Positions 7,179-63,295 of a DNA stretch of 64,000 nucleotides are shown here, piece after piece. Within the stretch, counting starts at the first letter, position 1. Each line of letters opens with the position of its first letter. The position numbers and the translations under genes were made by a program. The DNA comes from Tubulanus polymorphus (lineage: Eukaryota > Animalia > Nemertea), in NCBI RefSeq assembly GCF_964204645.1, contig NC_134026.1, forward strand, positions 9,571,950 to 9,635,949, written 5' to 3'. The notes beneath the pieces are model-generated. The model saw only the letters and a list, made by a program, of their open reading frames with translations, did not search any database and was not told the origin of the DNA.

Positions 7179-7216
7179 TTTTTTTTTTTTTAACTTGGCC
7201 CTAATCAGCCACCATA
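7179..7216 (-). mobile_element. Putative terminus of an IS3EU-like DNA transposon that carries the HECT gene
   Basis: Minus strand reads TATGGTGGGCTGATTAGGGCCAAGTT-(A)n and then enters the subterminal array; TAYGG ends recalled for IS3EU; the other end is not in the window. Confidence 0.45.
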
Positions 7217-7947
7217 CCGAATAGATAACTTTGCAGTGAAAGTGATTTCCCTTCTCAACCGTCAACTACTTACTGTGTGCCACTATGCAGCATATGTTAA
7301 GTCATTTTCCAGTTTTTACTACTGGTCTTCACCTTTTCTTTTGAGGAGCTGTCTCATGGGATGGCAATTAATACTGAGGAAGTCACACCATAGATCTACT
7401 TTCATAGTGTGACCTTTATATAGTGGCTACCAACAGTGACCTATTGGATGTTTCGGGGCAAAGATAGACTGTGGAAGATCTATTCTTGTAGTGCGACTTC
7501 TAGGGGGTACCGATTGTGACACAGGTTTAAACCCCAACATATATAGTGCAAATTAAGTGTATAATAGATAACCAAATTCGGAGGGGAACGCTGAAAGCTA
7601 GACCCTGTGATAGTCGTATATGGTTCGAACCACTTTTTAGGAGGGATTATACCGCTATAGACAGCAGGGGTTGGTTTTATCTTTAACCCAGGGTTAACTC
7701 AGTTGAATATGAATTGAGTTAGCCCCTGGGTTAAAGATATTATCAGTCCCAGGAATTTACCAAAGAGAGGACTACCGACCTTAACCATACACAAGTGGAG
7801 ATTGAAGCAACACAGACTTAAGTCATGTGATACTAAGGTGGTATGAGAAACTTATGCCTAGATTTGCAATCTAGGTCGGCTTATTGGGTTGATTGGTAGG
7901 GAACGATGGCAAGGTCAGACACCTTATAAATAATTGAACATATACCC

Positions 7948-7948
<1 letters not shown>

Positions 7949-8007
<59 letters not shown>
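7949..8007. repeat. (TA)n microsatellite directly abutting the left end of the recombinase element
   Basis: About 29 TA units. Confidence 0.95.
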
Positions 8008-8008
<1 letters not shown>

Positions 8009-8072
8009 TGAAAACATACTATTAACGGGGTTTGTGGGCTCAAACCCAATTGTGTGGTGCTATTTTAATACC

Positions 8073-8244
8073 CGTTTCTGGGGCATATATGTATAATTAT
8101 ATGCTAATGATATGCAAACCTCACAATTTATATAGGCCTATATGCCCCATGAATTATATACGTTTCTGGGGCATATATGTATAATTATATGCTAATGATA
8201 TGCAAACCTCACAATTTATATAGGCCTATATGCCCCATGAATTA
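8073..8244. repeat. Subterminal 88-bp direct duplication, each copy with ggggcatata...tatatgcccc inverted arms
   Basis: Near-identical copies start at 8073 and 8161. Confidence 0.85.
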
Positions 8245-9757
8245 AATACATGCACCTATACATGTAACATAACTGAAACTATGCCCTTCGTGTGGAATAC
8301 CTGAGGCCAAACGCTTAGACATTACTAAACAGCGAATTATCTCACTGCCTATTCTATTGTAAGCGACCGGGCAACAGTCGGTTCTAACAGGTCTGGGTCG
8401 ATTCATAACAATTGCGATAGGCTTTCCTACAGAGCTTCGTCCAAGTAAGGTATACAACTTCCATATTTCTCCTTGCTTTGTCGGAATATTCTCTACTCTT
8501 CACTTCTATTCACATTTTTGAAATATGGCTCTAATTGAGGGAATGAAAGTCCTTTCAAAGCTTTCAATATCCAGATACATCTGACAACAGAAACAAAACA
8601 AAATTTTCAATGAAAATTGGAAATCTCTTTATTAGGAAAAAAGCATTAGCAAATTTACAAACTCTACAAGATAATTCTGATATATTTATCAACCCTAGAA
8701 TTGTAAACCACGAGGAAGTTGGATATTCTGCCAATGGAATATTTTAATATTATTCATGTCATACATTCAAAATACAGTCGATACCTTCTGACTCAAATCA
8801 TTTAGGACCAGTGATTTTCGTTATTTCAGTTAGGCGATAATTCAAGTTCCAATATGGAAATTCATGCTATGTTTCATAAGAATTGTGTAAAGATTAGCTG
8901 ACCTGGAACTCGATGCGTTTACTATCCCAAATCAAATATGTTATACCGGTAGTCATTGGATTGTATGATATTTTGTCAACTGCAGATAAAACAGAAACTA
9001 ATCACATTTTTTAATCATTATGTTCTCAACCTGAAATCAATGGCCTACAACAAATATACCTGATAGGAATGAGATTAGTCTACAAAAATACACCATTTAC
9101 TTATGTTCACATCATTAAAAAAAAAACCTTCTCCACATTTTCTCCTGTAATCTAGTTCATTACATTTCTATAACAGGTGTAAGACTGGCATGAGGGAAAT
9201 TCTAACATTTATTCAGATCGGTCATTTTTCATTTACTGCTTTAACAATTTATATACCGGTAATATATTTGATTTTGTTTAAACATTTTCTTCTAAACAGT
9301 AATCATTGCGCTTTAATAAAAGGAGAAATCGATCAGAACAAAAACAAGCAATCATTGAAAGAAAACTCCACATACGGAATATCAATATATAGATATTATT
9401 TACATTGGGCACAGTGCTTAGTGGCAAAAACAAAGTTTCACATATCTTTAATTAGGACCATGGGTCCAGTACGACCAAATGAGTAAATTTTAGTTTTGAG
9501 CGAAAAAATGTATTTTTCTCGGATTTACGATCGCTATCTTGGTGCATTATATATGCATGTCCAACTTTCTCCAAAACTCACTCGCATGGCAAAACAATCA
9601 ATACTATGTTCTATATGTACGTTCTTGCTACAGCTAAACAATAACGTAATTATTACAAAACATAAATAAAGTGAATTTGACGCATCGATTGACGCGTCAA
9701 AAATGCTATTTTAATTTTGACAGTATATTTACGCCATACATTTAGAGGTTCCCTATA

Positions 9758-12700
9758 TTATTTCGTTTTCTGCTTCTTCGAGATAATATTATGTAGCCTC
9801 GTTCGAACCTGAGGCAAAGTTCGGCTACCACCAAGTTCTTCAACTACTTTTCTCAAGTCTACTGCTGGTGCCATTCGCTTATTATTCAAATAGTTATGCA
9901 ATATCTTACAAAAAATATCTGTTTCTCCCTTTGTCCAGGGTGCCCTCTTAATACGTGACTTCTCATCTGAAACAAAATCATATAAAAATGCTACACAAAC
10001 CATTGCATCAAGACTACTGATAGGTTCTCACAATAGGCCCCATTTCCCCTAGGATTGTTATACCGTCCATAAGGTGGTTTAATCACTATGGACCCTATCC
10101 ATGAACTTACTTTGCGCTTCAGATTGGTTAGTTTCCATCTTTGGCGGAACTTCTGCATCGACCATGTCATTGTCATCACTGTCATCACTGTTTTCACTGT
10201 CTTCACACTCAGTCCACTTATCGGCATAATCCAAGGATAATGGGAGTGCTAAAACGTGTGAATAAATGCACATGTACACATACACACACACGGGTGACTG
10301 CTGTCATAGCAGAGAATACTAAAATATTTAATCTATCAGTAAAGTCAGACTTACCATCGGGATCAATATCCTCCAATGACTTTCCTTTGAATCTTGCCAT
10401 AATGCCATTTTCGGCAGCCAATAGCACCTTCGCTACCTTCGCTTTTTCAACGAGTGAAGATTGGAGGCAATATACATCTGCGTGAATTTTCACATCGTGC
10501 CCCATATGATCAGCCACCATCTTCAACTCGTTGGGCTTCATAGACAAAATCTGAAGTTATAAACCCAAATACTGGCTTTAGGGCTTTCATCCATTTCAAA
10601 TCACTTCACAATATAATTTCCATTCACAAGTATCATTATAGCCGATCATTGATTTATTATAATCATTGCTTGTTATGTCTTTCGAAGACCAGAGCTTTAC
10701 CTTCTTTATAGATATTCTTGATGAATGAAGGTTCTATTTTATATTCTTAAAAATTTCATTCACTAATACATACAGGGCTGGAAATTAGGCTTGTATGATA
10801 GTACATGTAAAAGCACTTCATGATAAGGTATGTCCTGATACGGATGTTTTAGGCCTATACAGGATCCGATATCAGCACTTGTCTATTATCACTTGTCATC
10901 CTTTTATGATAGGTTTTATATACTGGTTAACTGAATGTAGAATTGTGGGACATACATAAATAGGAAAAATCACTTCATGGTCAGGTAGTGTCTTGATATG
11001 ATGGGTTTTATATGTCACTTAACTGGATGTAGAATTGTGGGACATACATAAATAGACACTTCATAAATAGGTAGTGTTCTGATATGATGGGTTTAATATG
11101 CTATTTTACTGCATGTAGAATTGTAGGATATATATATAATGGGAAAATCCTTTCATGATCAAGTACTGTCTAGATGATTACATGACCTTAACGGTCACAT
11201 GCCCTCTTAATTTCAGTAAGTAATTAACCTAATGATTCTTTTGAATATAGATAACACCTGATATCAGGAAGACAGAAAAAAATCCCCCATATACATGTAG
11301 TCTTAAATTGTCAGGTTATTAATCAGGTAATATAAATATACAACATTTATAATTGTAATACTGTGGTTTGTATTTTAAAGAGGTTTGTAATGCTTGCAAT
11401 AAGACTAATCCTAGTTCATTGGTAAATGATAAACCTACTTGTAGTGTAGTTGCAAAGAAAGATCGGAGCTTCGTCGATCTAATTCGTTCAGGTGCATTCA
11501 GTCCGGGACACAATTTTGTCATTTCACGCATTGCAGTACAACCGTCAAGTGGTGTGTCAGCACGTTTCCTAAAATGAATGATGGATTTGCAATGCTTGCA
11601 CAAAACCTGTCACGATATGAACTAAAAAAGGTTCAGATTGTATTGCTTTGTAAAGTATATACTGTATACAAAGACATTTTTCTAAAAAATGGCTGCATGG
11701 CCTGGTAAGCACTAACTTATTTGATTATTCAGCATGTAGATGCCCACGAACAAAACCGTGTATATCAGTTGTGATGAGAGATTAAGATTTTTATCAGGAC
11801 TATTAATCAATTGACATTCAAAAAGGGAATGATTGTACCTTAATAATAATAAAATAAACCTTGCATTAATCGAATCCATTCAAGAAACATTCAAAATCCG
11901 TATTGCAATTGTTAATGGGTTAATGTTATTTGAATAGGAAAGTGCAAACACTGTATAAATCAGAAAATAGCATTCTTCCTAGAAAGACCCACATAGCTTT
12001 ATCTGTGAAACTTTACACTGACATTTCAGATAGACTTCTATCCATCTTCAGAGTTATATAAAAACTCTTCTAAATCGCTGAAGATGGATAGAAGTAAAAT
12101 CTATCCAAATTGTCAATGTCAACAGATATACGTTGTTGAATGTTCTTATTATACACGCTATATACACGTCTTTTATACACGTCTTTTATACATGCTAAAT
12201 AGAATGCCACAAGTCTAATTGATTTCAGAATTGATGTTACCTAGCAAAAATGAAGTCACTTGTACTTTGTCTGGTATCGAGGATATGTTCGATAGCTTTA
12301 ACCATCTTCTCAGTAAGCAGAATGTATACACCTCGAATACTGCGAGTGCTCTTCCCTCGGATTTCTATTACACGCATTCTACAAAAAACTCTCCAAAATC
12401 AACCCAACATATCTTGTAAATTAGATAAGAGCATATGACTAAGACAATTTTAAAACAACAATTACCGTTTGACCAAAAGCTGCTCAGCTAGAGACAGTGA
12501 TTGCAGGATCTCTTGATTCTGATCGGCATCCGGCACAATATTTTCGAAATCGCTCATGATCATTTCTTCCACTTCTGATATCCGCCTTCGGTTGAAAAGG
12601 ACTATACGGACAAGAACAGCATAAGCAAGATGTTTCCACTGTTTTGAAGTAGGCTCATGTATCATCAACGCTTTATCAATTTCAGAGTCGAGCCAATCTT

Positions 12701-15700
12701 TAAAGACTACTAAGTCATCTGCCACTGGATGTGTATTGCCTTGATTGAGTTTCCTAAGTTTAATCCTTCGATTAGCAACACACGAAACAGTATTGTTCCA
12801 ATGGGCCCGATAAACTACTTCGAAATCTCTTCCCTCTTCTTGCATAATTTTGTCTCCTTCAAAAATCCCCATGCTCATTTTGAGGACAATGCAATGTTTG
12901 ATGTAAATCCCCAAATTTATTGCCACACTCGGGGAATCTTTTTCCAAAGCTAACTTCTTAACACATTTGACTATCTGATGGAAATGTGGCCCTCTCAGGT
13001 ACGAGGAAAGCGATATCCAGTTTTCTTCGCCATTGTTCTCATTCAGGGCTTTCAGTAGCATACCGAGTAAACGGACCTTTGTTCTCAAGTTTGCTAGGTC
13101 TTTTCGGCGCTGCTCCTTTGCAGTGCCTAAACGCGAGTACAATGACAAAGCAAATTCACCAATTAATTCGTCTTTTTCGCAAATGCCAGGAATGCCAGGG
13201 TTTGCAACTGTTTCTCGCATTCTGCTGAATATCAAGTTTAATGCAACCGTATCCTCATCGATTCTTGGTACAAATGGTGATAGCATGTTTCGAGAGGTTC
13301 TTATGTAATTGATGTCTGGTTGTTTTGCCATTGGTTTGAAGTGGCAACGTGTCGCATGCTCGGAAAGGCATCCCTTGTAGAAAAAACCCTTACAAAATTC
13401 GCATGGTACGTAGTCCACTGCATTTGGTGGTTTATCCGTTTTATTGGGTCTACGGACAACGACCAACGTACCATGTCCTTCTTTTATCACTTTACAATTG
13501 TGCCGAAAGTTTCCTTCATTCTGAAGTAAGCGCATATGTTTTTTTTTTTCATTTGGATCGCGTATCAGATGGTACTTTATAATTTCTGGTTCAGACGCGT
13601 GAATACTGCACAAATGCGAGGATATTTTCGAAGTAAACACACGCTTACAATACAAACAATAATCTGCCTTTCGGTAGTCCCGCTTGCCATCTACTGACTG
13701 GTATGTCGGAACAGTAACATGTTTCAAATGAGCCGACAGTCTTGACAGATAATCTCCAAAGTCTTCTTCCTCAATATCGTTATCATTTGGATCAATTTCA
13801 TGGAGATTATCATCATCACTATCACATAGATCGTCATCAGGAATGTAATCATCTTCAGAATCTGATATACATTTTCTTTTTTTCCGCTTTTTTGGAATGT
13901 CAACATCAATTGACTGATCTTCAGAGTCAGATGAGTCAATTTGCCTTTTTTTCTTTATAATTGCATCCTGTTGTGAAGAGGTTCCAGCTTTCGGTTCAAA
14001 TACATCTTTTGGCAGTAAAGGGGCAAAATGATCCGGATTCCAGTGTCCAGGTTTAAGTTCTGAATGTGTAGTCCACATTACGAGTAAAGGTGCTTGCCTC
14101 AATGTGCCAGTCAAATTTTTTCTTGGATTTAATATATGGTTCATTATAGGCACACGATTATCCAATAACCCATTAACCGAGGGGTATACTGATCTTATCC
14201 TCCTATCAATAACTGTTGCGAGTGCCTGTATTGTCAGCATCGAAGAATAACTGTTGTGTATTGCACAAGCAATACATGCATCTGCGAAGGATGGTGAAAT
14301 CAAATCGAATCCAAATTCGATACTTCGAGTTTGATAGAAGTCAGAATTCTCAACCATTTCGATACAAGTGCGAACACGAAGTTCAGTTGCTAGATCTTCA
14401 CACCCACAAAGACCGACTGATACTGCATTGAACAAACAGTTACCATCACCAGATACATCTGCAGGCATGAGCACCCCATTTACCATATCACCACATTTCT
14501 GCATAATTTCTAATGACCTGCCATGTACCATCAGTTTTCTGTCCAAACACTTATACTCAAGTTCCCGTATCCTACTTGCAAAATAGCCAACAGTAGTTTT
14601 CAGATTCTCATAGCTTTTCTGTGCACTCAGAGTGAGCATCTTCAGAATGTTTGAGTAATCAATAGTGGTAGTAGCTGAAGATAAAATAAAAGACATCTAT
14701 CAAGTGTTAATGAATACCTAGGAAACTACCACCAAAATTTAACATGTTTGGTGTTGCAGATCTATTCTTATGAATTTAAATCAAATCTGGTAGACCTAGC
14801 CATTTTACATGTACCCAATTCAATACAATCAAAAGTCAATTTTCCGGCTTCTCAATAAAAATCTTGTCAAAGTTGTATCTAAATCCAATATCTAAAAAAC
14901 AAATATCCTACTGAACTGAATTTTTGACTTTTTGACCTCGTAGAAACTGTTGAATTAATATTCACATACATTGATAACATCTTTGCGTTATTTCATGTTA
15001 TTTTTGAAGGCATCATTGGACTACAAGTTTTTATCACTCTAACCTCTGTCTAACAATACTTCAATGTTCAATTCCTGCTGGTGCGAATACACAAACTATT
15101 TTCCATGAAAATCAATGAAATGACAGAAAATTTCATGTGCTTTTTCACTTTGCAATAGATAATAGGTACAAAACTGAATGGTTCCAAAGTAAATTTCAAA
15201 TTTCCAAAGTAAATTTCAATGTTCAAATTAATCCTAGTGGGGAGAACAATATCGGATAATTTCTATTCAACAAAACAAATTCAACATAAATAACAACAAC
15301 ATAAATAACAAGTTAAAATTGTTGGTACCCTCCTTAAAAAAAAAACCATTCCAACCATGAGCGAGGACTGGTGAGACTAAGATGACTCAAAATTTGCCTG
15401 ATCCAAACATATCTAAAGATCTAGAAATTGAGACTACAGATTACAGAGACTACTACAGAGACTACGCCATTTTCCTCTGATTGATCCAATTTTTCCAGTA
15501 GTAATAGGCTCTGGGCAGAGATACATATATTATATATACCAAACATCAAACAAGTTCTCCATGAAAACTTTTGTTGAACAAATGCTGTTGGTCACATATC
15601 TTGAATCTGATAAGACCAGTTTTTGAGCTGCAGTTGTCTCAAAAGTACTAGATACATGTATTAAGACAATCCTTTAAAATATCTCCAAAGCTTCCTAAAA

Positions 15701-18700
15701 TGCTTTGATTCTACCTATGGATGGACAATTGACACTAGAACGCAATATGCCTAATACAACTTTAGAACAAGATTTTTCAGTTAATGTGTAAGATTTTTCA
15801 GTTAATATGCACCTTTTTAAGGTAGATAAGATCATAACGTTCACTTACCGCAGGTTCCCTCCTTGTTTTCATAAAAAAATGGTAATTCTTCATCGCTATC
15901 ATAGTCATGTGGCAGAAAACCTAAATAGATTAGTTTCAATTATTTCAATTATCCATACTGGCATAATTTTTCGGCATTGACCCTCCCCCTTAGTATCTAC
16001 GTGTTAATGACACAAGCTATGCTCAACACTTTCAACGACCGAAGGATATTTTTTATGAAATAGGGAGTGTAAAGTAATATGGATTGCAATTTATTTTTAT
16101 ATCACAGTTTTTGATGCATTTTAGGACATGTCTTGTCCACAAAGTATGTGCTCCTTGAAAGACAAAAGTTCGTACAATGTGCTCTAATCCCCACCCACAA
16201 AAGAAGGGAAACCACTTTTACATGATTTCACTCTCTGAAGACCGATTGCATTTTGACTTTCTTCTCGCAAGGCATTATCTTGCAAGTCGATCGTTTTCCT
16301 TACACTCACAAAATATGAATGTTTAGGATGAACAAAAACCAGGTTTAAAGGTATAGTACACTTCAAATGTAACGTACTTATTATAGCTTGAGATATCGAA
16401 GATTCAAGTAATTCCTCGCCATCTGAAAATTCTAAAAGTAGAGAAAAGCCAAAACATCTCAAAAACTATTTGAAGAAAATATATATTTCAATTATCAGTG
16501 GGTAAGTAGTGTTAGCTAGTCCAATTTTGGGAATAAAACAAATTCCAAAGATAACTATATTGGCAGCTCATTGATGTTCAATCATTCAAATAGCTGATTA
16601 TTGGAAATGTGCATCTTGTGAATAATAAAGCTATGTAACTATCAGTAACTGCATAAATACGGTAGATATCATCGATACAGCTATTAAATTGTGAACAACT
16701 ATAACTGCTTATGCAAACAAGTGTTATCTTACCAGAACAGGTGGATTCAGAATCATTGTCAACATCACCAGAAGGGCCACATGTCAATGCATCATCTTGA
16801 AAAATAAATGATATGGTGACAATTATTGCTGCATGTTACAAGTTAAAGAATTATGCAATACGTTAATTTACCAGAGCAGGTAAATTCAGAAACTTTCTTT
16901 ATATCATCACATCAATACATTATCTTGAAAATCAAATGACAGATATAATGATACAGCAACCTGACAATTATTGCAACATAACATAAGTAAAGCATGCAAT
17001 GGTGATATAATGTATTAGATTATAATGTAACATAGAATTGTGATGCATAAAATTGTTCAAATTCTTCATGAACAGGAAAGGTCTATTTCAACTTGTTTGA
17101 AAAGGATATTGGGTTTGGGATAGTGTCCTGATATGGGATTTATATGCTGAATGTAGAATTGTAAGATATGCATAGGTAGTAAAATCACTTCATCATTAGG
17201 CAGTATCCAGATATTGTGGGTTTTATATGCCACCTAACTGAATGTAGAATTGTAGGACATATATGAATAGTAAAATCACTTCATCATTAGAGAGTGTCCC
17301 AATATGAAGGGTTTTATATGCCACCTAACTGAATGTAGAATTGTAGGACATATATAGACAGTAAAATCACTTCACAATTAGGTAGTGACCAGATATGATG
17401 GGTTATATATACTACTTAACCAAGTACAGAATTGTAGGACATACATAAATAGTAAAATTATTTAATGATTAGATAGTGTCCTGATGTGAATGGTTTTATA
17501 TGCCACTTAAGTAAATGGAGAATTGTAGGACATATGGTGAATCTTTTCTCATTAAGGTAGGATAGGTTTTATATGCCCCTTTACTAAATATAGAACTTTT
17601 AACACATATGAATAGAGAAATAGAGTTTATTTACCAGAAACTGTGAATTCAGAAATTTTCTTTTCACCAGAACACTCACGAATCAATGAAATATCTGTAA
17701 AATAAAATGACAGATACAATGATACAGCAACCTGTTGACCACTATTACTGCATTATACAAGCTAAAAAGTTACATAATGAGTAAACTTACCAGAACACGT
17801 GAATTCAGAAACTTGTTTTGAATCATCACTGGAACATTTACTCGTCAATACATTATCTAGAAAATCAAATGACGGATACAATGATACAGCAACCTGTTGA
17901 CCACTATTACTGCATTATACAAGCTAAAAAGTTACATAATGAGTAAACTTACCAGAACACGTGAATTCAGAAACTTGTTTTGAATCATCACTGGAACATT
18001 TACTCGTCAATTCATTATCTAGAAAATCTAATGACGGATACAATGATACAGCAACCTGATGACCACTTTTACTGCATTATTCAAGCTAAAACGTTACATA
18101 ATGAGTAAACTTACCAGAACACGTGAATTCAGAAACTTGTTTTGAATCATCACTGGAACATTTACTCGTCAATACATTATCTAGAAAATCAAATGACGGA
18201 TACAATGATACAGCAACCTGCTGACCACTATTACTGCATTATACAAGCTAAAAAGTTACATAATGAGTAAACTTACCAGAACACGTGAATTCAGAAACTT
18301 GTTTTGAATCATCACTGGAACATTTACTCGTCAATACATTATCTAGAAAATCAAATGACGGATACAATGATACAGCAACCTGTTGACCACTATTACTGCA
18401 TTATACAAGCTAAAAAGTTACATAATGAGTAAACTTACCAGAACACGTGAATTCAGAAACTTGTTTTGAATCATCACTGGAACATTTACTCGTCAATTCA
18501 TTATCTAGAAAATCTAATGACGGATACAATGATACAGCAACCTGTTGACCACTTTTACTGCATTATTCAAGCTAAAACGTTACATAATGAGTAAACTTAC
18601 CAGAACACGTGAATTCAGAAACTTGTTTTGAATCATCACTGGAACATTTACTCGTCAATACATTATCTAGAAAATCAAATGACGGATACAATGATACAGC

Positions 18701-21700
18701 AACCTGCTGACCACTATTACTGCATTATACAAGCTAAAAAGTTACATAATGAGTAAACTTACCAGAACACGTGAATTCAGAAACTTGTTTTGAATCATCA
18801 CTGGAACATTTACTCGTCAATACATTATCTAGAAAATCAAATGACGGATACAATGATACAGCAACCTGCTGACCACTATTACTGCATTATACAAGCTAAA
18901 AAGTTACATAATGAGTAAACTTACCAGAACACGTGAATTCAGAAACTTGTTTTGAATCATCACTGGAACATTTACTCGTCAATACATTATCTAGAAAATC
19001 AAATGACGGATACAATGATACAGCAACCTGTTGACCACTATTACTGCATTATACAAGCTAAAACGTTACATAATGAGTAAACTTACCAGAACACGTGAAT
19101 TCAGAAACTTGTTTTGAATCATCACTGGAACATTTACTCGTCAATACATTATCTAGAAAATCAAATGACGGATACAATGATACAGCAACCTGTTGACCAC
19201 TATTACTGCATTATACAAGCTAAAAAGTTACATAATGAGTAAACTTACCAGAACACGTGAATTCAGAAACTTGTTTTGAATCATCACTGGAACATTTACT
19301 CGTCAATACATTATCTAGAAAATCAAATGACGGATACAATGATACAGCAACCTGTTGACCACTATTACTGCATTATACAAGCTAAAAAGTTACATAATGA
19401 GTAAACTTACCAGAACACGTGAATTCAGAAACTTGTTTTGAATCATCACTGGAACATTTACTCGTCAATACATTATCTAGAAAATCAAATGACGGATACA
19501 ATGATACAGCAACCTGTTGACCACTATTACTGCATTATACAAGCTAAAAATTTACATAATGAGTAAACTTACCAGAACACGTGAATTCAGAAACTTGTTT
19601 TGAATCATCACTGGAACATTTACTCGTCAATACATTATCTAGAAAATCAAATGACAGATACAATGATACAGCAATCTGCTGCCAATTATTACTGCATTAT
19701 ACAAGCTTAAGTTATTTCATGAGTTTACTTACCAGAACAAGAATCATGATTTTTTTTTTCACCAGATTTGTGTTGACGAAAAGACTTGGAAGTCAATACA
19801 TTATCTTGAAAATGAAATTACAGGGTGTTAATACAATACCTAGAGTAGGTAATTTCCCAAAATATAGGCTTACATGTTGCCAGTAGACCATCTTGAATGT
19901 GATCCATGAAAATTACATGGTTTTATATCAACCTCATTTTGAGTGTGTCAAGAGAAAGTAAAAAATCGACAAAACATGTATGCCTGGTTACTGTCTTTTT
20001 TCCAATCCTACCGTTCAATTTGTAGGGAAAGAAATCAAATTACCTGCCAAGGGTAGAAATAGGAAAATTGCAAGGCGGGTTCAAAAAGTAAATACGAGGC
20101 ATTTTCGGTTAAAGCAGCCATATCAAATTCGTTAAGGGGGGTCCCTCCATCTAGGGTTAGATACACTTTTGAATAAATCAACCCTTAAAGATGAAATTTC
20201 TGAGATGTTAAATTTATAGGTTTAAGTTATCTCTGTACGAAGGGCAACTTCAAAGGGAAGGCACGAGTCTAGACCTTCGAGACCACCCGCTTGATACGCC
20301 CCTGCATGCATTTCAAAGATCATGTTTACTTCATGAGAATGGATTATTTCTAACATAAATAATAACCAATTTCATTGATGTTAAAAATATATTTTTATCA
20401 AACGATACATACTTAGACCATCAGGAAATTATAGCACTGTATAGTATTCACCTTAAAACAAAACATTTATCATGGTGGGTGGCCAATAGGACTGAACCTA
20501 AGTTTTTTTACACAAAGAATACATGCTTAACATTGCTCATTATCTAAAATATGCATTATGAGATAATTCAATGAAACAAAAGGGAACCATAAAAATTGAA
20601 AAGCATACAACAGATATATATATATAGAATATATATAAGGTTAGAATATATATAAGGTTAGGCCTATCACATGCAAAATGATTCAAATTCGTCTATTTCT
20701 GCTGTTCTGGTGGACGGCTCAACAAAGTATACCGGTAAATGTATAAACTGAGTTTATGGACATACAAATCTTATAGAGAAAAAGAGCAACATTTCTGAGG
20801 GGTGGATGCAAGCTGGATTTATATGTGCATAATAAAAGGCATAATTCAACTACCCGCCCTTGGTTGTGTTCCAACCTAATGCTTCTAAGCCAATACTGTA
20901 TCATTCACTTATACAAATTGGGTAATGATAGTTTATGGTCGTTGGTGTATCAAAATGAATCATCTACCATCATAGGGCATACCTATAAGAAGCAAGTTGC
21001 ATCTAACATAACCTATCTTATCTTCAAAGTCCAATGATATTTATTAACCGCAGAATTAACACATATTCCTGATAGACACCCTCAATTCAGATTCATGCAC
21101 AGTTATCACACACAGTACATGAAGAAAATCTCATGGCGCAAATGTAGCCTGTATACAGCAAGTTTTTATGTAAGCCATGAAATGCAAGGCAAATCTGAAA
21201 TTTACATTTGAATATGATAGACTCATTTTGCTTTTATTCTCCATGCTTAAACCAAATTCCATCTACATAGGCCTAATGACAATCGCAAGCTTCAGCATGC
21301 TGGGTGTACTTTGCAAGTTTGACTCAATCTAGAAAATTTTAATCCCAACAGGTTAACAAGCTTACCTGAGGCATTAAGTTCTTTTTTGTTAGAAGCCTAT
21401 TTATATGTTGAATACAAAAATAATTTTCCAGAATGGCATAATGGAAGCAGTGAAGAAATCAGCAAATAAGCAAATGTAGCTCATTCATGCAGCACAGAAA
21501 TACAATATGGTACCCAAATGCATCAGTAGAAACAAAGATACTACACGGCGTATCTATAGTACAATGATTAGTTGTAGAGGAACTTTTATCGTGATTAAGA
21601 AATTGATCAGTCGATGTTCTTAGGATCAGTACATACACACAGAGAAGGGTGAGGGGGTTTGAAAATTTGTATTAAAATGTCTATGGTTGTGTATGGGAGG

Positions 21701-24700
21701 GGGTTTGCATTTATAAACTGCTGTATGCACCATACTCCATGTAGTATGATCATTGATGTTGGACCATCGTAACTCATAACCAAAGTTTAATTTTTTCAAC
21801 ACCAGCATAAATCATTTACTGATAATTCATTAATAAAGACAAGCGTTACGAATCATAAACTGCTTTCTTCTCGGGACCCGCTGTCAAGGATAATTGGAGA
21901 TATTGAGGTTATGTTCACGATACTTTTTTTTCAATTGACAACTTCAGTCGTCATTCTGATAAAAATTACAAGCTTTGAACTTAGGGCTAATTCTTTGATG
22001 CACAAATGCTTGCATTAGAGGTTGTTACTATAAGGCACTAAAGCGTATACAAAAAGTATGGATGTATGGTGAAGGGGAGGGTAAGGTTCTAACTGAATGA
22101 GAGCTTCGCTGCAACAAAATTGGATGAAAATAAATCATCATAATTTACCTGTCTCCACCAATAATCAGTCACCCCGTAATCATACCGCAATTCTGTTTTG
22201 GGGGGTATGTCCTTAATAGCAAAAAATGCAATATGGGGCCTTCCTTCAGATATGACGGTTTTGGCTTTACAGTTTTCTTTGCCACCCCACCCATCATTGA
22301 TGAGCCGTCCCAAACTACCATCATCAATTGAGGCATCAATGCTGAAATGGTAAAAGTCATATTTAGAGTATTCAATTAGGCCTAATATACTTTAAGAAGA
22401 TGGGTGGTATCAAATTATGATACAGGCCTACAGGTAACAGTTAGGCTTTGAATGACTTATTTTAGTTAAAGTGTAAACTAAGTAGCCTGATGGGCAATAT
22501 CTGGTTAGAAAATCAATAGACCTACATACCACAGAGAACTGAACTTTTTGTCTTGAAATTCAAAGACATATGTATCGTCATCCCCGATTTCCTTCACATC
22601 ACGGAGTAGCCCACGATATTCCACCAAAAAATCCCCTCTACAAACTGCTTTCTTTGTGAATAATCCATATCCTTAATCAGAAAAAAGTATTATCTTTGAT
22701 TAAAAACCATTCCTTCAGGTCCTACATTAAAACCTAGGGTCCAGGGACACCATGCCCAGATGAGAAAAGGTTTGAAATGCTCAACCATCTGGAAATGTTA
22801 ATATTCAACGTCTGGTGAACTACAGAAACCATGACATAAATTTTGCATTGATTGTTTATTTATGTCTTTACTATGTATTGTGGTAACAAAATATGCCAAT
22901 GTATTAATAGGTATGATATGGAAATACTCAGTTTCTGCTATTAAGTCAAGGAAGCTACCGATATAGGTTTTTGAGGATTTCAGACTGAGATTTTTGAGCT
23001 ATATGGGCACCAAAAAGGTCACAGGACGGACTTCTTGTGTCTGATCAACTCAATTGTTTTAATGCTGATGGGCCCCTAGGCATTAAAAATATTATTTGAA
23101 AGATCAAGATAATTGAAGCGTCTTAAAAGATTTCCCTTGAAAACATCAAAATCTGTAAAAATGCTGATTTCGGCAAACAGAAATCTGCCATCTTGATTCT
23201 GACAGGACCAGTCTTTGGGCTGTAGGTGTTTCAGGGTAATATATGTATAAACCAAACATCAATCCATGTGTTTTCTAAACTTCCCAAAATAACTGGATTC
23301 TGTCTACGGACTGACACAACAGATATTCTATAAAAAAGTGGATATCATACAGATGCAGCAGTAATTTAGTAAACTAGTGGTCCAGGGACACCACGCCCAC
23401 TTGGGAAGTGGTTAGAAATGCTTAACAAACGGAATATTCAACGCCCCCTGGTGAACATATTAAGAAAGCAATGACCTTACAACTCACCACAATCAATGAT
23501 GGAACATGTCATGAGCTACAATTTTGTAATTGATTGTGGTTACAAAATATCCTTAGAGACCAATACAATATGAAAATACTAATATAATATAATAAAAGTT
23601 ATTTAGCTCTTCAATGCCCCTGGTGGCCTAGGGCCGATTCTTTTATGCAGTACGGATAATCCGGACGCTCCATTTCCATTCTTTTATTGATCAGGTGACT
23701 ATTTCTGGAGAGTTCGGAGAGTCCATTCTCTCCAATCTGTCGACCGGTGTGATTGCGGAGAGACCACGTGACAAAATGGCGACGCATGAATTTTGCCTCC
23801 TAAAACTCAGAAAAGTTACGGAAGCCGCCATTTTGATTCTCAACAACTATTCCATTATGCACAAATCAGGATATTCAATCCGGAGAATACGGACTGCATA
23901 AAAGAATCGGCCCCATAATCATAGAATATGTCACAAGATACAATTTTGCCATTCATTGTGGTTACCATACCAATGACCTTGAAACTCATACAAAATATCA
24001 ATAGGTACCAATTCTGTAATTCTGTATGTAATTCTATATTCAACTCTCCCTGGTGGTGAGAACAAAAACCCGGGTAACCCCAATTCCACGTGAGGAGATG
24101 AATACTATGACAGCGATACTATAGGCCTATATCAAATATCAAGACTATAAGTCAAAACTTGTCCATAGTTTCCTTCAAAAACCTTTTTCTGAGGACTGAT
24201 GACACGAAGATGGTCACTGATTGCATCACGCTTGACTGATCAAAGTATCTGTCTGATAGGCCTGTGTAAGAGCCCTTCTCATAGTATAACCAGATCTCGG
24301 AATTCAGGCCAAAAATGACCTTGGGCATAAAAAAGGTCACATGATGGCCATGTTAAGTCTGATCTACACAATTTTTCTTATGCTGATGCACCGGGGATAC
24401 AAACAGATGTGAATGATCAAGATAATTGATCAAAGGGTTTCAAAATTTCCCTTAATAACATCAAAAATATGTAAAAAGTGCTGATTTTGCTGAACAACAA
24501 TGGCAACCAGTCGGCCATCTTGATTCTGATCAGGCCAGTTTTCGGGCAGAAGATGTATCTAGATACATGTAAAAACTAAAGATCAAGACAATCCATTGAA
24601 GCGACTTCAAAACTTCCCAAAAGAACTTGATTCCGTCTATGGACAAACGGACGACAGATGAAAAGTGAACGCAATAGTCCACTGGGACTTAAGTCCCAAG

Positions 24701-24956
24701 TGGGCTAAAGATTATGTTGTCCTCATTATATATCAAAAACACTTCTCGGCCTATAGGCCTCATTAGGTTAAGGATAGGGTTGGGGTCTAGAAGGTCAGGA
24801 GGGTTAGGGTTTGATAGGGTTAAAACATTCCATTTAGGTATAATTTAGCCTACCTATTTCGCTATTGACAACTTTTTTTTCGAATGCCTCTTCTGGATCT
24901 TTGCCAAATTTAATAAATTCAAGAGCCACCTGACTTGGTGTCATGCGTCTCGGCAT
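9758..24956 (-). CDS. Multi-exon SET - OTU (vertnin-like) - zinc finger - tyrosine recombinase - Myb/SANT-like polyprotein, roughly 1500 aa, apparently intact
   Basis: Exons 24854-24956 (MPRRMTPSQVAL), ~22530-22671 (GYGLFTKKAVCRGDFLVEYRG), ~22149-22342 (IDAS..GRLIND..ELRYDYG), micro-exons ~21366-21396 to ~15849-15920, 12466-14674 (GDGNCLF..PDHFAPL; YCLYC..HLCSIH; VLFNRRRISEV), 12241-12378 (IEIRGK), 11439-11568 (IRSTKLRSFFAT), 10355-10550 (ADHMGHDVKIHADVY), 10111-10248 (acidic), 9758-9966 (RAPWTKGE..RTLPQVRTRLHN). The splice phases I checked are compatible and I found no stops. Confidence 0.85.
10800..11175 (-). repeat. Inverted, degenerate copies of the 91-bp satellite in an intron
   Basis: actgaatgtagaattgt(a/g)ggacata and gtcctgatatgatgggttt are reverse complements of the 27180-30080 unit. 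Confidence 0.7.
17115..17600 (-). repeat. Inverted copies of the 91-bp satellite in an intron
   Basis: About 5 units of gaatgtagaattgtaggacata...agtaaaatcacttca. Confidence 0.75.
17695..19810 (-). repeat. 162-bp tandem array, 12 near-identical units, each holding a 66-nt phase-1/phase-1 exon
   Basis: cagaacacgtgaattc every 162 bp from 17791 to 19573; minus strand ttttctag|AT AAT GTA...TGT TCT G|gtaagt encodes DNVLTSKCSSDDSKQVSEFTCS. Confidence 0.9.
22735..24710. repeat. Fragments of a non-autonomous Helentron/HINE-like interspersed repeat in a SET-domain intron
   Basis: Repeated ggtccagggacacca(t/c)gccca, gccatcttgattctga, caagataattga and a terminal agtcccaagtgggctaaa shared with 790-998. 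Confidence 0.45.
23631..23913. mobile_element. MITE with GGGCCGATTCTTTTATGCAGT terminal inverted repeats (PIF/Harbinger-like ends)
   Basis: gggccgattcttttatgcagt at 23631 and actgcataaaagaatcggccc ending at 23913. Confidence 0.75.
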
Positions 24957-27179
24957 CTCACCTGAAAAATACAACCAAGAATAAGGTGCTATGATAATGG
25001 GCAGGCTTATTTGTATCTTTGCCCTATTAACCGAGATATTAATACTGCAAATTGGGCAGAACACAAATCCTCACCTTGAAACATAAAAAAAATAAAAAAG
25101 AATTAAGCGATTGATTTTTGCAAAAAAAAAACCATTTAGACCAACGGCCACGTCACTGCATATCATATCAATAGCAGTAGCACTTGATATAAATTACAAA
25201 AATTGGCTGTCAAAAATATACAATAAAGAAAAAATTCATTGTGCAACACCGGTGCTTAGTTCCAAGCTTCAAGGCCTAAATATGCTAGAATTCTGTATCA
25301 CTATAGGCCTACTACTAGGGGGCCTAAATAAGTGAAACTAATTAGTAAGCAGGCATGGCTATAGGCCGGTCCATGTCCTACAATGAACCTGTAACAATGA
25401 CAGGTTGGTACCGGTATTTGGATTATAATCTAGGCTGATTCAGCAGGTTAGCTGTAGCCTACTGTGCAGTGGTAAAAGTATCAGCCTGTAGCGCGGAATA
25501 TCAGTCAGCACATCAGGTTTGGTTTCTATGATGATCGGACTGTTTTACAAACCACGACAATTCCTATACCGGTAGGTATTTGTAGGCCTATTTGTATATA
25601 CTCTAGGGCCTCTCTAAGTTCTGGATATTATCAACGTTGGCAGTAAAAGTACAAATTACAAGCCTATCTGAGATGACTCGGTCAAGACTAGAGATAGGGC
25701 CTAATACTACTAGTAAGGTCAGATGTAGTCTAGTACCTAGCCGTTGTTTTCCAAACAGGTTGTAGGTAGGGAACCGTAACAACAACTGTTGAACAGCAGT
25801 TGTTACAGTCTGTTCAGACTAGTACTAGGTCAGATGGTATTCAGGCCATCAGGGATTAGCTGGGAGGAGGCCTTTATTTTATTAGATAATAGCTTACCAC
25901 CAACCGATTACTAAATACTAACAAGGACAGGTTACTCACATCCAATGTGCTAGTGCTGGTGTACTATAGGCCTATAAGTATAGTTGAATGTGTGTGTAAA
26001 TGAATTTAGCGTTTTCTGCAATCCTGATTAGAAATGCGGTACAATGTATGTCAATATAAGAAATTTTGTAGCCAGAATTTTAATGAAACGGGCGTAAATG
26101 TAGTAATGAAAATATTGCACGTCCACCGGTTGTTTACAACGCAGCAACGACCTTCAACGTAGTCTGAATACCGGTCGTTGTTACCGGTTCCCTAGAACGA
26201 CGGCTAGGTACTAGACTACCTTCAACGCAGCAACGAACTAACCGGTAGCCCTAAATACCGAACAAAACCGTTAAATACCGACTTTATGTCACTAATCAAT
26301 TTTAGATGCGGGCATAAGGCTAATTTATTTTCGTGTGAAATCGATCTTTTTGGGATATTTCGCTTAACTTTTTGAACACATACCCTAAATTGGTCTTAAC
26401 GACCAGTGTACGGTAACTGTGCAGCCTGAATAAATCCTCGTTTTATAGCCATTTTAGACTGTATTGAATTATTGCCAAAGGGTTTTCATTTTCTCGTGTC
26501 GAAAACAGAAAAGATCAGCCATTTTTTGAAATTCTAAGATGTTTCTTGTGTTTCCGTGCCTACGAACCATGATTTTCTTTGAATAATTTGCAAACATTTT
26601 CAAATGGCAAGGGCCTAGGCATAGAAAAATATTGTTAAAATTGATTTACGTAACGGTAGTTCATTAAATGGGGTCTATTTTCTCTAATTGAAATGAGTTA
26701 AAGAAGACTTTTTTTTAGTAATCCTCCAATGCAAAACAGTTTAAAATGGATAAAACGATGATTTACTTACAGTTTCACTGGTCGTATTAAGACCTAATTG
26801 AGGTACCCGGTATGTGTTGAAAAGTTTAGTTTATAGGGAACTCAAAAAATCGATGTCAGACCAAAAAAAAATTAGAATTTAGGAACGGACATGCAGATAT
26901 GTCAGGCATACACTGCTAGTCTATTCACTTTTGTGTTTCATCAGTTTTCTCGAGATAATTTGTAACTTTTGTGAGCAAATACTTCAAACTAATGCCATTC
27001 AAGCCAGAACTGTGCAGTCGGACATCGTTTTTGTATCCATCTTAAACACTGTATTGAAGGATTGTTAAAAAGTCTTCTTAAACTTATTTATGACAGAGAA
27101 AAGAGACTTCACGAATCGCACCGGTTCTTGAAAGATCATAATTACATCAGGGCAATATCTAATCTTGCATTGATTGTAC

Positions 27180-30080
27180 TAGTCATGTCCTACAATTCTA
27201 CATTCAGTTATGTGGCATATAAAACCCATCATATCTGGACACTACCTAATCATAAAATGATTTTACTATTTATGTCTATTACTACATATGTCCTACAATT
27301 CTATATATACAATTCTATATCGCTGGCATATAAAACCCTTCATATTGGCACATTTCGTAATGATGAAGTGATTTTACTATTTTTATATGTCCTACAAATC
27401 TATAATTAGTTAGGCAGCATAGAAAACTCGACTCGTAAGAAACTACCTACGGTAATCATAAAGCATTTTACTATTTATATATGTCTTACAATACTGCATC
27501 AGCTAAGTGCAGTACAAATTTATATTCAGTTAGGTGGCATATAAAACTATCATATCAGGGCGCTATTTGTGGATGTCTTACAATTCTACATTCAGTTGCG
27601 TGGCATATAAACCCACGGCATCAGGACACTGCCTGATAATTTTACTATTCGTATATTTCCTACAAATCTACATACATTTTAAGTGGCGTATAAAACCATT
27701 CATATTAGGACAATGGACACTCTCTAATTATGAAGTGATTTTACTATTTATATATGTCCTACAATTCTACCTTCAGTTAAGTGGCATATAAAACCCTTTA
27801 TATTGGGACACTCTCTAATGATGAAGTGATTTTACTATTTATATATGTCCTACAATTCTACCTTCAGTTAAGTGGAATATAAAACCCTTTATATTGGGAC
27901 ACTCTCTAATTATGAAGTGATTTTACTATTCATATATGTCCTACAATTCTACATTCAGTTAAGTGGCATATAAAACCCTTTATATTGGGACACTCTCTAA
28001 TGATGAAGTGATTTTACTATTTATATATGTCCTACAATTCTACCTTCAGTTAAGTGGCATATAAAGCCCTTTATATTGGGACACTCTCTAATGATGAAGT
28101 GATTTTACTATTTATATATGTCCTACAATTCTACCTTCAGTTAAGTGGAATATAAAACCCTTTATATTGGGACACTCTCTAATGATGAAGTGATTTTACT
28201 ATTTATATATGTCCTACAATTCTACCTTCAGTTAAGTGGAATATAAAACCCTTTATATTGGGACACTCTAATTATGAAGTGATTTTACTATTTATGTATG
28301 CCCTACAATTCTTTAATCAGTTTCGCAACATATAGAACTCATCATCAAATTTATATTCATTTAGGGGGTATTTAAAACTATTCATGTCAGGACACTACCG
28401 AATCCTGAAATGATTTTACTATTTGTGTAGGTCCTACAATTGTACATGATCAGTTGCGTGGCATATAAAACCTACGGCATCAGGACACTGCCTAATGATT
28501 TTACTATTCGTACATGTCCTACAAATCTACATACATTTTAAGTGGCGTATAAAACCATTCATATTAGGACAATGGATAATCATGCCATTATTTTACTATT
28601 TGATTATGTCCTGCAATTCTACATCCAATTAAGTGGCACATATATCGGGACACTGCCTAATCGTGAAGTGATTTCACTATTTATATATGTCTTACAATTC
28701 TACATCCAGTTAAATGTCATATGAAAAAAATCGTTCATACCTATTGGGACACTCTCTAATTATGAAGTGATTTTACTATTCGTATATGTCCTACAATTCT
28801 ACATACATTTAAGTTGCGTATAAAACCATTAGTGTCAGGACACTAGATAATCATGGCGTTATTTCACTATTTAAATATGCCCTGCAATTCTACATTCAAG
28901 TAAGTGGCATATAAAAACATTAAAATCCGGACACTACCCAATCATGCAGTAATATTATTTATCAAAAATCCATAGGAGCAAAAACAATACAAATCTCATT
29001 TTCTAATGAGTAATATATATTTATTATAGTAAACGTTTTCGGGAGTTACATTATCCCCTCTTCAGGCATAGCGCGCAAGTGATTAAATTTTCATATAATA
29101 CGTTTTTAGATAATTAACTACTAGTCAAATATATTCACTCAGTAATTTAGATTGTGTATAATTAATTATCTTTATATTGTAATCATCTTGTCACTCAGTT
29201 AATTGAAATTGTTTGTAATTAGCTTCGTCCTATTCTATATAAATACCAGTATGATATGAACATTTAATCACTTGCGCGCTATGCCTGAAGAGGGGATAAT
29301 GTTACTCCGGAAAACGTTCGCTACAATAAATATATATTACTCATTACAAAATGCGATTTGTATGGTTTTTGCTCCTATGGATTTTTAATTATCTTGACCC
29401 TCTACCTAAGAACTAATATTATTTATATATGTCCTGTAATTCTACATTACGCTGCGTGGCATACAAAAGCATATCAGGACACTGCCTAATCATGAAATGA
29501 TTTTACTATTCATATATGTCCTACAAATTTACATACATTTAAGTGGCGTATAAAAACCCTTCGTATCAGCCCACTAGATAATCGCGACGTTATTTTACTA
29601 TTCATTATGTCCCGCAATTCTACATTCAGTAAAGTGGCATATAAAACCCACCATATCTGGACACTCCCTAATGATGAAGTGATTTTACTATTTATATATG
29701 TCCTACAATTCTACATGCAGTAAAATAGCATATAAAACCCATCATATCACACACTACCTAATTATGAAGTGATTTTACTAATTGTATCTACACATCTACA
29801 TTCAGTTTATTGGCATATAAAACTATTCATATCTGGACACTACCTAATCATAGAGTTATTATAATATTCATATTACACACTACCTAATTATGAAGTGATT
29901 TTACTAATTGTATCTACACATCTACATTCAGTTTATTGGCATATAAAACTATTCATATCTGGACACTACCTAGTCACAGAGTTATTATAATATTCATGTC
30001 CCCCAATTATGCATTCATTTAAGTGGCATATAAAATCAATTATATCAAGACACTACGTAATCATGACGTGATTTTACTAC
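27180..30080 (+). repeat. 91-bp satellite array, homogeneous core with degenerate flanks
   Basis: gaagtgattttacta at 27732, 27823, 27914, 28005 and onward. Confidence 0.9.
28964..29386. mobile_element. Foldback/MITE with ~125-bp inverted arms inserted in the satellite
   Basis: aaaaatccataggagcaaaaac...cttcaggcatagcgcgcaagtgattaaa mirrored at ~29263-29386. Confidence 0.8.
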
Positions 30081-31771
30081 AGTCAATCTTGGTGTTTGCC
30101 TATCACTCAGGACTCGGCTTTTTAGTATAGATTAGGTGATGTACGGATACAAGATAACCCATAGTTCTACTAATGAATTATCAACCATATAAACTGATTT
30201 AAGTGCATAACCAGTACAATAGCCGGTTTACAGATGTTTAGATTGTCTACGTAAACTCTTGAACTTAAACTACTATCACACTTGAAAGCAATACGAAATA
30301 CCAGCCATCATTAAATGGAGAAGCTTTAGACTTAGACATTGAGCGATTACTTCTAAGTTACTCATATTTCCCACTGACCTCAATTACTAAATTAGTTGTT
30401 AATATTCTTTTCACTACAGATGTAGGTCTACGTTCCCGACAACTGATACGGGTTACATACATAGTCTAACATAGAAATGGAGAATGGGTCTACGAATTAT
30501 TGAGTACAAATTAGACACACATTATAATGATAAAGCGGGGATGGCATAGCCGAGGTTGACTGTATTCTATTTGTTCCCTGGTACTAACTACAGATAAGGA
30601 AAAAACCTTCCTATCTGAATACTGCCTGATAACAAAATGATTTTCATGATTATGCAATATGGCCTACAATTCTATTAAGCATATCAAGCGTATTTGTTTG
30701 TATCATTAAATATCCCATAAATGGTTTCTGACAATGACAACTACTTTTGAGTTTATCAAGTCGGCAAACCATGGTTTTGATGATTTCAAAATATCAATGC
30801 AATACATACTTCGGACAATAAACAGTAATGATACACTTGTATTGATCTAATCAAAGAATGAAGTCCATCTCTATTCGATTTACATAAAAAAGAATTCCTT
30901 CAATGCAGTGTATGTAAAACGAATAAAGAATCGACGGTTAAGTTCAAAGCACGTGCTGGTCGTTTTAAGGCATGTACCTCTAAAGCAGAGTACATAATGG
31001 TACCCTTCGTCCATTTAAAAAAGTTGAAATATACTGCATTTGGCCTATGGATAAATGTCTCCAATGATGTTACATGTAAAAAGGACATGCAAGATCGGCA
31101 AACTAATAAAGAAAGCTTACCTTTTTCCTTTTTGGCTAGGCTTAGACTCAATGTTCTCGCATCACCGCGAATAGTAACTGGACATGCGCATTGACCTATC
31201 GGTCGAGTTCATTGTTTGCTGTAGGAGATGAACCCTACCGAACCTCGAAGCAAAGGATTATTTTAATTGCCCAATGAATTTCATATGAACAATGTGTTGA
31301 GAACACGCGTTTTTGGAAAAAAATATATCTTAATGTTCTTGAAGATTCTTGCAGTTTGTAAGTGTAAATCATATACACACTACACAGCCGTACACCCTGC
31401 TCTGCTCTGTATGGGCTCTCCCGAACTTCCGGAGTTCTGCCAGGTGATGGTTTCTCCTAACTTCTGACGTAGAAAAAGGGGCGGAGCTTATCTGTTCTAA
31501 CCGTCAGATGGGGCTGCTGTATTGCTTTATATATAAATATCTTTGTCAGACCCGATTACGCCTACGACTGCAAGTGGGTGATTGAACAATTTTCTGAGCG
31601 TTTGCAAGGTGTAACAATTACGGGACACTTTGTATGCCCCGTAATTTTTCACCACCCCGCAACAAGGAAATTAAAAAGACAAACGCCCCGTTAATCGTAC
31701 ATTATCTTAGTATATATATACACATATCAGTAAAACTGCATGTGGTTTATTAAACTTTCATACAATAACAA

Positions 31772-32300
31772 CAAGAGGCCCACGGGCCTTGTACTTTCAT
31801 GATGCAGTAGAGGAAGAATGATTCAGTATATAAAGTTTTACATTGTAACGATGTAACAAGTTTTAAAATAGTTAAGAGGTATAGCCGATAGGCTATGTGG
31901 CGATAATGTTCATTTTCTGTTAATATATCCTTCCATGAAAAGACAAGCCCATTTTAGCTGCCCCAAAGATCATACTACATGAAAAAATGCATCAAGAATT
32001 GGTGTAGGCATCGTGCTGAAAAGAAATCCAAGATGGATAGCAACCCTGGTGGCCATACTTGAACTCAATGAATTTTCAATAAGGGGTAGACATTTCACCT
32101 ACCAAGTCTGACACCTAGTATCCTTAAAATGCATCAAGAATTGCAAGATGGCTGACCTGGCGGCCATATTTGAAGGCCGATGACCTCCATATACAAAAGG
32201 CATGGACAGCTTGACCCTGATCCTGACACCACATTTTGTGGAAATCAATCAAGATCTGGGGCTGCATCCTGCAAACAAGAAATTAAAGATGGCCACCCCA
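31772..32300. repeat. HINE/Helentron-like non-autonomous repeat
   Basis: Starts aacaagaggcccacgggcctt; repeated aagatgg...ggccata motifs, similar to 50720-51470. Confidence 0.4.
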
Positions 32301-32314
32301 CGATGTAATTGTTA

Positions 32315-32756
32315 TTGACTTCCTATTGTATAGGCCTAACCCAGGCAGTCCTCCTTATTACCGAGATGACATGAAATATAGCATATTTATTTATTCCTTA
32401 TCGATTTTAACACTTGAAATGATGTTATATCAGTAAAATAAATACCTTCTAGTCATATTTTAAATATTTTTCCGGATATTTTGTAAAAAAAATTTTGACT
32501 TCAAATACGTAATCTCGGTTAGCAATAAAATTTTATTAAATTTGATTGATCGACGATCTCTTGGTAAAGTTAAAAATTATTTTTCTACAAAAATATCTGA
32601 CAAAATATGTAAAATATGACTCCAGCAGGCATTTATAACTGATATAATATGATTTCAAGTGTTAAAATCGATAAGGAATAAATAAATGTTATATTTCATG
32701 TCATCTCGGTAATAAGGACTGCCTGGGTTAGGCCTATACAATAGGAAGGAGTCAAT
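32315..32756. mobile_element. Long foldback element with inverted arms over 130 bp
   Basis: ttcctattgtataggcctaacccaggcagtcc...cttatcgattttaacacttgaaat mirrored at ~32610-32756. Confidence 0.85.
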
Positions 32757-33257
32757 TAAGATTCGACTTTTTGAAAAACCAGCACAGATGCCTCTTCAAA
32801 TCACATGTAATTAAAACATTCAGTGCTGCTTCTTAGTTTGATGTCCCTATTTTCATCGCGCATGTGGTTAAAATTATTGTCTACATCGAACGTCTTCAAC
32901 AGCTGATACAACCGCACCCGCCTTATCACAGGTGCACTCTGCCGCCGTGATTCGCCCATTCAACGATAAAAACTTTCCCACGGTCTTATTTTTGGCATTT
33001 TCTAATAATTTGGGGAAATATTTTTAAAAAGCGAAATTTCACAGTCTGCATTAATAAGATTAAAGTATTTATTCGTTTGACAAATCTTCCTCTGAACTCC
33101 CAACAAGTTATAAGTGGCGACACGAAAATGACGTCATCGACTCACTACCATCTTATAACCTTCATGACTACGTCATGAAGGTAAAAATCACCAGCACTTC
33201 AAAATTTTGGGTGAAATAACTTCAAAAGTGGAGTTCCACAAAAGTCTACGTTAATAC

Positions 33258-33380
33258 CAATCCCCTCACAGGATTCGAACCTGATGGCATCGAGACAGCC
33301 TTGGTACGAACCTGCAACACTGGTTTCTAGCTATGGTTGAGTTAAGCGATACCTTCAGGTTTGAATCCCAGTCGAGGATG
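33258..33380. mobile_element. Short member of the tRNA-box foldback MITE family (see 63651-63975)
   Basis: ggattcgaacctgatggcatcgaga shared with 63667-63691; inverted caggtttgaatccc..gaggatg. Confidence 0.6.
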
Positions 33381-33389
33381 TTGATATCT

Positions 33390-47530: not shown

Positions 47531-47579
47531 GATATAGTGTTTTATCAATCGTGATATCGGTTCTTTCCACTGTATTAAA

Positions 47580-55650: not shown

Positions 55651-55651
55651 T

Positions 55652-63290: not shown

Positions 63291-63295
63291 TGTAT

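Follow-up and report, generated by a model that had tools for sequence, protein, structure and literature searches.

Gene content of the locus

The window analysed here, i.e. the whole 64-kb stretch of Tubulanus polymorphus DNA, contains a 23.7-kb element that sits inside a TA repeat and carries an intact tyrosine-recombinase gene (Table 1). From its N-terminus, the predicted protein has an OTU domain, a Cys/His zinc-finger-like region, the tyrosine recombinase and a C-terminal HTH. An earlier note on this DNA had placed an intact recombinase between two inverted ends, and this was borne out: all junctions between the six exons are AG/GT, and 1005 codons are free of stops from the OTU exon on. 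The catalytic residues R, K, R, H and Y are kept, and all 44 relatives in the alignment share the H and the Y. Tyrosine recombinases usually have a first catalytic His, and in 41 of the 44 family members a Thr occupies this position.

Structural comparison was carried out for a sister copy (P0002), which scored 29 bits against Pfam Phage_integrase (cut-off 27.1). Its model, whose mean pLDDT was low (42), had XerH and Cre as the top structural alignments (Z 9-10), XerH ranking first (Z 9.9 with an rmsd of 5.1 across 278 residues). With Foldseek as the sole search, nothing matched at E up to 0.001. The C-terminal HTH showed a weak Myb match (E 0.0076) and a homeodomain-like fold (Z 8.7). Further upstream, the 162-bp tandem array (17692-19739, 12.7 copies) offers one spliceable mini-exon per unit, and the gene models of the sister copies differ in the number of peptide repeats from this array that they include.

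Upstream of the recombinase gene, and within the element, lies a gene for a SET domain. When solved structures were searched with the family profile, solely SET domains were found at E up to 0.001, and in 10 of the 44 relatives the SET domain is inside the same predicted protein as the recombinase. No SET match was obtained in 80 relative loci (described below), and a homologue search using one SET exon, which is a weak test, found none.

Most of the 23.7 kb consists of introns and repeats. A 91-bp repeat forms three arrays (3,003 bases) that flank the SET gene on both sides, and all 37 of its 37 matches in the window fall within 8008-31710. The longest array is broken by a 141-bp inverted-repeat insertion (28961-29389), and nested inverted-repeat insertions are also present inside the element. 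Pfam searches of 19 further interior ORFs gave nothing above the cut-off, and beyond the SET, OTU and recombinase domains no cargo was found by an ORF scan that short-exon genes could escape. Likewise, no DDE or reverse transcriptase domain was detected in the scanned interior ORFs of at least 70 aa, a set that left out small exons and ORFs antisense to the recombinase exons.

Table 1. Positions of the element's genes, repeats and ends within the window
Feature	Position	Strand	Details
Left target repeat, (TA)29	7950..8007	.	final TA (8006-8007) may be part of the element
Left (downstream) end	8006..8030	+	common motif 8017-8030; closing GGGG 22-25 nt from 8006
Subterminal hairpin-forming stretch, left	8019..8056	+	predicted -7.2 kcal/mol as DNA, without shuffle control
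Recombinase gene, six core exons	9758..14674	-	14674-12466, 12378-12241, 11568-11439, 10550-10355, 10248-10111, 9966-9758
Recombinase catalytic residues	R 12584, K 12353, R 11465, H 10499, Y 10472	-	
91-bp repeat array in recombinase intron	10905..11170	-	
Upstream small exons	15835..19747	-	per RefSeq models of sister copies; include 162-bp tandem array
91-bp repeat array	17133..17620	-	
SET-domain (KMT5A/SETD8-like) exons	22151..24960	-	~22340-22151, ~22690-22530, weak first exon ~24960-24850
Long degenerate 91-bp array	27150..30674	+	orientation opposite to the two intronic arrays
Subterminal hairpin-forming stretch, right	31602..31663	-	predicted -17.8 kcal/mol for 31600-31710 as DNA, without shuffle control
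Right (upstream) end	31686..31710	-	common motif 31686-31699; GGGG 22-25 nt from repeat
Right target repeat, (TA)5	31711..31720	.	

Ends of the element and target repeats

Both end sequences quoted in the earlier note agree with the letters of the window, and so does the right TA run; the left run begins at 7950 and not at 7949. The 14-nt motif TACNATTAACGGGG occurs exactly at the two positions given in Table 1, on the plus strand at the left end and on the minus strand at the right, and has no other mismatch-free match in the 64-kb window. The two copies point inward from (TA)29 and (TA)5. From base composition, 0.0014 exact matches would be expected on both strands of the window, and about 1e-5 at most 30 nt from any of the 34 TA-run edges. 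When 20,000 random 40-mers from the window were aligned to the left end, none aligned as well as the right end does. The similarity of the two ends is far beyond chance.

In an ungapped comparison, 17 of 25 positions are identical when the left end starts at 8006, versus 8 of 25 when it starts at 8008; therefore, the last TA of the left run probably belongs to the element and lies within its left boundary. In this register, the CT with which both ends had been said to start is a coincidence. The inverted ends themselves are real. The earlier note had taken them to be binding arms of the recombinase; because the motif starts 11 nt inside each boundary, an accessory site is a more likely role for it than an arm next to the crossover core. 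In addition, GC-box-like, CRE-like and TATA-like words are clustered at 31480-31545, 170-230 nt inside the right end, and we take these words to be a possible promoter of the minus-strand genes.

Other features of the window

A second, distinct and broken element with a SET-then-recombinase build was found at 33695-44312. It has SET exons (43156-42989 and 42423-42226), a 434-bp exon array and an OTU region (37928-37278, 48% identical), and its recombinase has a stop and a frameshift and is missing the catalytic C-terminal part, with the HTH at about 33920-33695. A candidate for its upstream end, at 44304, adjoins (TA)4 and has 9 nt in common with the 31710 end; no match was found for a downstream end. 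A start of this second element at 31721, with the (TA)5 common to both elements, was not supported: no matching end is present in 31721-33700 (best score 20).

At 63293-63460, a perfect 17-bp inverted repeat surrounds a compound microsatellite (TA, TACT, TACCCG). Its left side resembles the left subterminal region of the element, a score reached by 7 of 5,000 random stretches. This structure could consist of two element ends that face each other with a repeat in between, or it could be a short non-autonomous element. The window also contains an ORF of 373 aa (2576-3697, minus strand) that has an internal repeat of 46 bp, lacks a Pfam match and resembles at its end the start of a HECT ligase, three ORFs of 325, 189 and 446 aa (45752-50425, plus strand), the first with weak C2H2/POGZ-like zinc-finger matches and the others with none, and coding fragments of an LTR retrotransposon, including RT, RNase H, protease, gag and DUF1759 (54335-59585, minus strand).

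Copies in Tubulanus polymorphus

The window protein matches seven RefSeq models of Tubulanus polymorphus at 99.7-100% identity over 352-1005 residues, and these models are spread over five contigs of 11-32 Mb. Since two pairs of models resemble halves of broken copies, the seven models probably correspond to about five loci, one of which may be the window copy. Given the intact recombinase gene and its near-identical copies on several chromosomes, the element has likely been active recently.

Sequencing reads were placed on positions 7200-12000, which cover the left end. On crossing the left TA run into the element, depth rose about three-fold in two of the four runs. In X5, which consists of raw reads from an independent sample of a separate study, mean depth was 9.0 in three flank bins versus 25.8 in 23 inner bins, means that omit one high-copy repeat bin per side and two bins where reads are cut at the TA run. 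The X1 contigs, possibly from the assembly's own sample, had a depth of about 50-60 in the flank versus 167-175 inside, contig depth not being the same as copy number. One of them (X1-3, depth 149) spans 8017-8102 and reaches another 31 letters to the left without a break; hence, if these letters equal those of the window, all copies would run into at least (TA)11. In X2 and X3, which come from one sample, no clear step was seen at the left end and depth climbs only from about 9000. A divergent sub-family is visible in X5 at 8599-9114, near this rise. Short high-copy repeat fragments with many loose read ends were noticed at 7690-7750 in the left flank and at 9665-9726, just past the recombinase stop codon.

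Microsatellites are common breakpoints of rearrangement, which would favour a spread by segmental duplication with breakpoints in such repeats; a domesticated host gene, with the matching ends as relics, would be another explanation, and movement of the element was not directly observed. However, the copies are scattered across five contigs, are 99.7-100% identical and include two that seem to be broken; together with the rise in depth at the TA run and the equivalent ends in distant relatives, this makes duplication or domestication extremely improbable.

Relatives in other animals

The protein family is very large, with 12,933 representatives when E is at most 0.001, and 8,026 clusters (50% identity) at E up to 1e-10. 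The 20 representatives whose source was checked include insects, molluscs, echinoderms, fish and amphibians, and the proteins are annotated either as uncharacterized or as KMT5A-like host genes. No relatives were found in viral contigs, nor in metagenomes when a single protein was used as the query. Of 363 confirmed metagenome stretches we used the best 80, most of which are too short to include the ends.

GT repeats border several of these loci. L079, a unit of 12.2 kb, has (GT)14 on one side and (TG)22 on the other, and L055 extends for about 14.0 kb from (GT)20 to a degenerate TG tract. The sequence common to L055 and L079 begins at the GT tract, and L060 and L073 have the last 530 bp up to the TG tract in common; in both pairs the flanks beyond are unrelated. 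When six ends of these relatives and the two ends in the window were read inward, each 25-nt stretch closed with GGGG. Across the loci, GGGG at positions 18-30 was present at 5 of 29 inward dinucleotide-repeat edges, being missing from the other 24, and at none of 26 outward edges, with a background of 227/24,000 (0.95%); with this test window picked post hoc, the binomial p is 7e-6 against background and the Fisher p is 0.053 for inward versus outward edges. The polarity of the GT repeat relative to the gene is identical at all six ends of the relatives.

In a quick, unfinished tree (70 rows, 48 of the 80 loci), L055, L060, L073 and L079 form a clade of their own that is not sister to the window recombinase, so that the end geometry they share with the window is either of old origin or in part a coincidence. 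The window ends were also compared with TA-run edges from the 80 loci and did not match them (best score 18). In L035 (5082-5130) and L037 (5074-5120), the sequence immediately past a TA+TG repeat, pointing away from the recombinase, resembles the two upstream ends of the window over ~9 nt, which may reflect a second tandem element or chance.

The size of the complete relatives (12-14 kb) bears on the right boundary. The left end and the recombinase could form a real mobile unit whose canonical form is shorter than 23.7 kb, or the right motif could come from an adjacent non-autonomous member of the family. Nested inverted-repeat insertions and arrays do fill much of the length, and read placement covered the left end only (7200-12000). 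On the other hand, the 91-bp family, confined to the element, links 27-30.7 kb to the recombinase introns, the SET-then-recombinase order recurs in the neighbouring distinct element, and both domains are joined in one predicted protein in 10 of 44 relatives. We thus consider an atypical right boundary or length clearly unlikely.

Nature of the element and its proposed movement

Taken together, the stretch from 8006/8008 to 31710 is quite probably one recently mobile DNA transposon of the CryptonV kind, placed in a TA microsatellite by its own tyrosine recombinase. The presence of several copies, the rise in depth at the left end and the end geometry of the GT-flanked relatives all agree with the proposal of a single unit that is moved by its own recombinase and has no visible TSD. 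Microsatellite targeting by a recombinase transposon is well supported, and we infer that the element forms a circle.

A mechanism can be proposed from the chemistry of tyrosine recombinases and the Crypton model as given in the available part of PMC3212892. The recombinase would pair the two ends in synapsis, and strand exchange within the adjoining TA units would release a circle with a right end-(TA)k-left end junction, which would then recombine with another (TA)n tract. No TSD would be visible, because any duplicated bases would disappear into the TA repeat. The motif 11 nt inside each end might be where a protein domain docks, the C-terminal HTH being one candidate, and the outer 11 nt together with the repeat would form the crossover region. 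The SET and OTU domains may modify chromatin or proteins at the element.

It is also conceivable that the recombinase copies the element out or resolves intermediates in a replicative process that keeps the donor, or that insertion at TA is the work of a different enzyme, for example a DDE transposase. No excision footprint, circle or empty site was observed, and there are precedents for other enzymes: according to the accessible text of the sources, there are cases of DDE-driven (AT)n insertion among sesarmid nimaviruses (PMC10871703), and a Mariner transposase mobilises a Crypton (PMC3212892). Nevertheless, the scanned interior ORFs (at least 70 aa) are devoid of DDE and reverse transcriptase domains, and the single repeat strand polarity at 6 of 6 ends of the GT-flanked relatives is what an asymmetric recombination core predicts. 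Both alternatives appear very improbable.

A bolder interpretation is that, apart from the curated CryptonV, these elements represent a very large and barely described animal lineage of recombinase transposons, with a conserved end code (GGGG, 22-25 nt inside the repeat boundary), switching between TA and GT targets, and an H4K20-type methyltransferase and a deubiquitinase of their own that control chromatin at the insertion site. We regard this as rather unlikely.

Comparison with known systems

CryptonV elements are recombinase-encoding DNA transposons, some families of which are specific for microsatellites (Kapitonov and Jurka 2012, Repbase Reports 12:2034, in cnidarians, as cited in the available part of PMC8869645), and CryptonV appears as a class name in accessible parts of PMC4455052 and PMC5753468. 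Compared by description and not by sequence, the window element is similar in being an animal DNA transposon with a tyrosine recombinase and a microsatellite insertion. Its tyrosine recombinase is accompanied by no reverse transcriptase or DDE domain in the scanned interior ORFs, and insertion into microsatellites is seen in the window copy in (TA)n and in the (GT)n-bounded relatives with unrelated flanks, and would also fit the left-end contig. The window protein family may well be CryptonV. Three supplements of PMC10871703 contained no Crypton entries. In the literature covered, we found neither the structure of CryptonV nor a SET-OTU-recombinase element, its size or its end geometry; Repbase Reports and subscription journals, which lie outside this coverage, may describe them. 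DIRS and Ngaro elements were rejected as candidates, since RT and RNase H would be expected beside the recombinase and no RT match was present in the scanned interior ORFs.

CryptonF, S, A and I are recombinase-only DNA transposons, some with a protease (Ulp1/C48), and like the window element they have a proposed circular intermediate (Kojima and Jurka 2011, available part of PMC3212892). The same text describes them as having no terminal inverted repeats and 4-6-bp direct repeats, whereas the window element has imperfect inverted ends (17/25), and any direct repeat of it would be masked by the TA run. CryptonA recombinases match DUF3504 (same part of PMC3212892), in contrast to 0 of the 44 family members here (Pfam E up to 0.01). 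In the accessible text of PMC10104507, circular intermediates of Cryptons are proposed and had not been demonstrated at that time.

Starships resemble the element in being large, moved by a recombinase and selective for targets, with no true TSD (available part of PMC10104507), and a circular intermediate has now been reported for them (accessible part of bioRxiv 10.64898/2026.09.21.753150). The same part of PMC10104507 presents them as fungal, with a DUF3435 captain and many cargo genes, whereas only SET and recombinase genes were found here. DUF3435 clusters are a weak language-model neighbour (0.89, under the lead threshold of 0.9). The earlier note had seen a giant element conceptually similar to Starships in an animal. 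What stands is a single unit that lies in (TA)n, has inverted ends of imperfect match and is moved by a recombinase. The Starship analogy as a novelty does not: DUF3435 matched 0 of 44 family members (Pfam E up to 0.01), no cargo past SET and OTU was found in the scanned ORFs, and animal microsatellite recombinase transposons have already been named (CryptonV). The element is likely a microsatellite-seeking Crypton type rather than a novel Starship-like cargo carrier.

Endogenous nimaviruses are also giant animal elements with a tyrosine recombinase and simple-repeat insertion, for which end-repeat-end reads are reported (available part of PMC10871703). In the same text they differ as viral genomes of about 265-400 kb that target telomere repeats or 28S rDNA, those inserting in (AT)n using a DDE enzyme.

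With an intact, young and multi-copy element whose ends are defined, excision, circle formation and the targeting of microsatellites become open to direct tests in an animal, and a recombinase homing to abundant simple repeats could serve as a safe-harbour integration tool. With respect to known systems, the microsatellite-targeting mode is already represented by CryptonV, and what is new here is a member of this known but little-documented kind.
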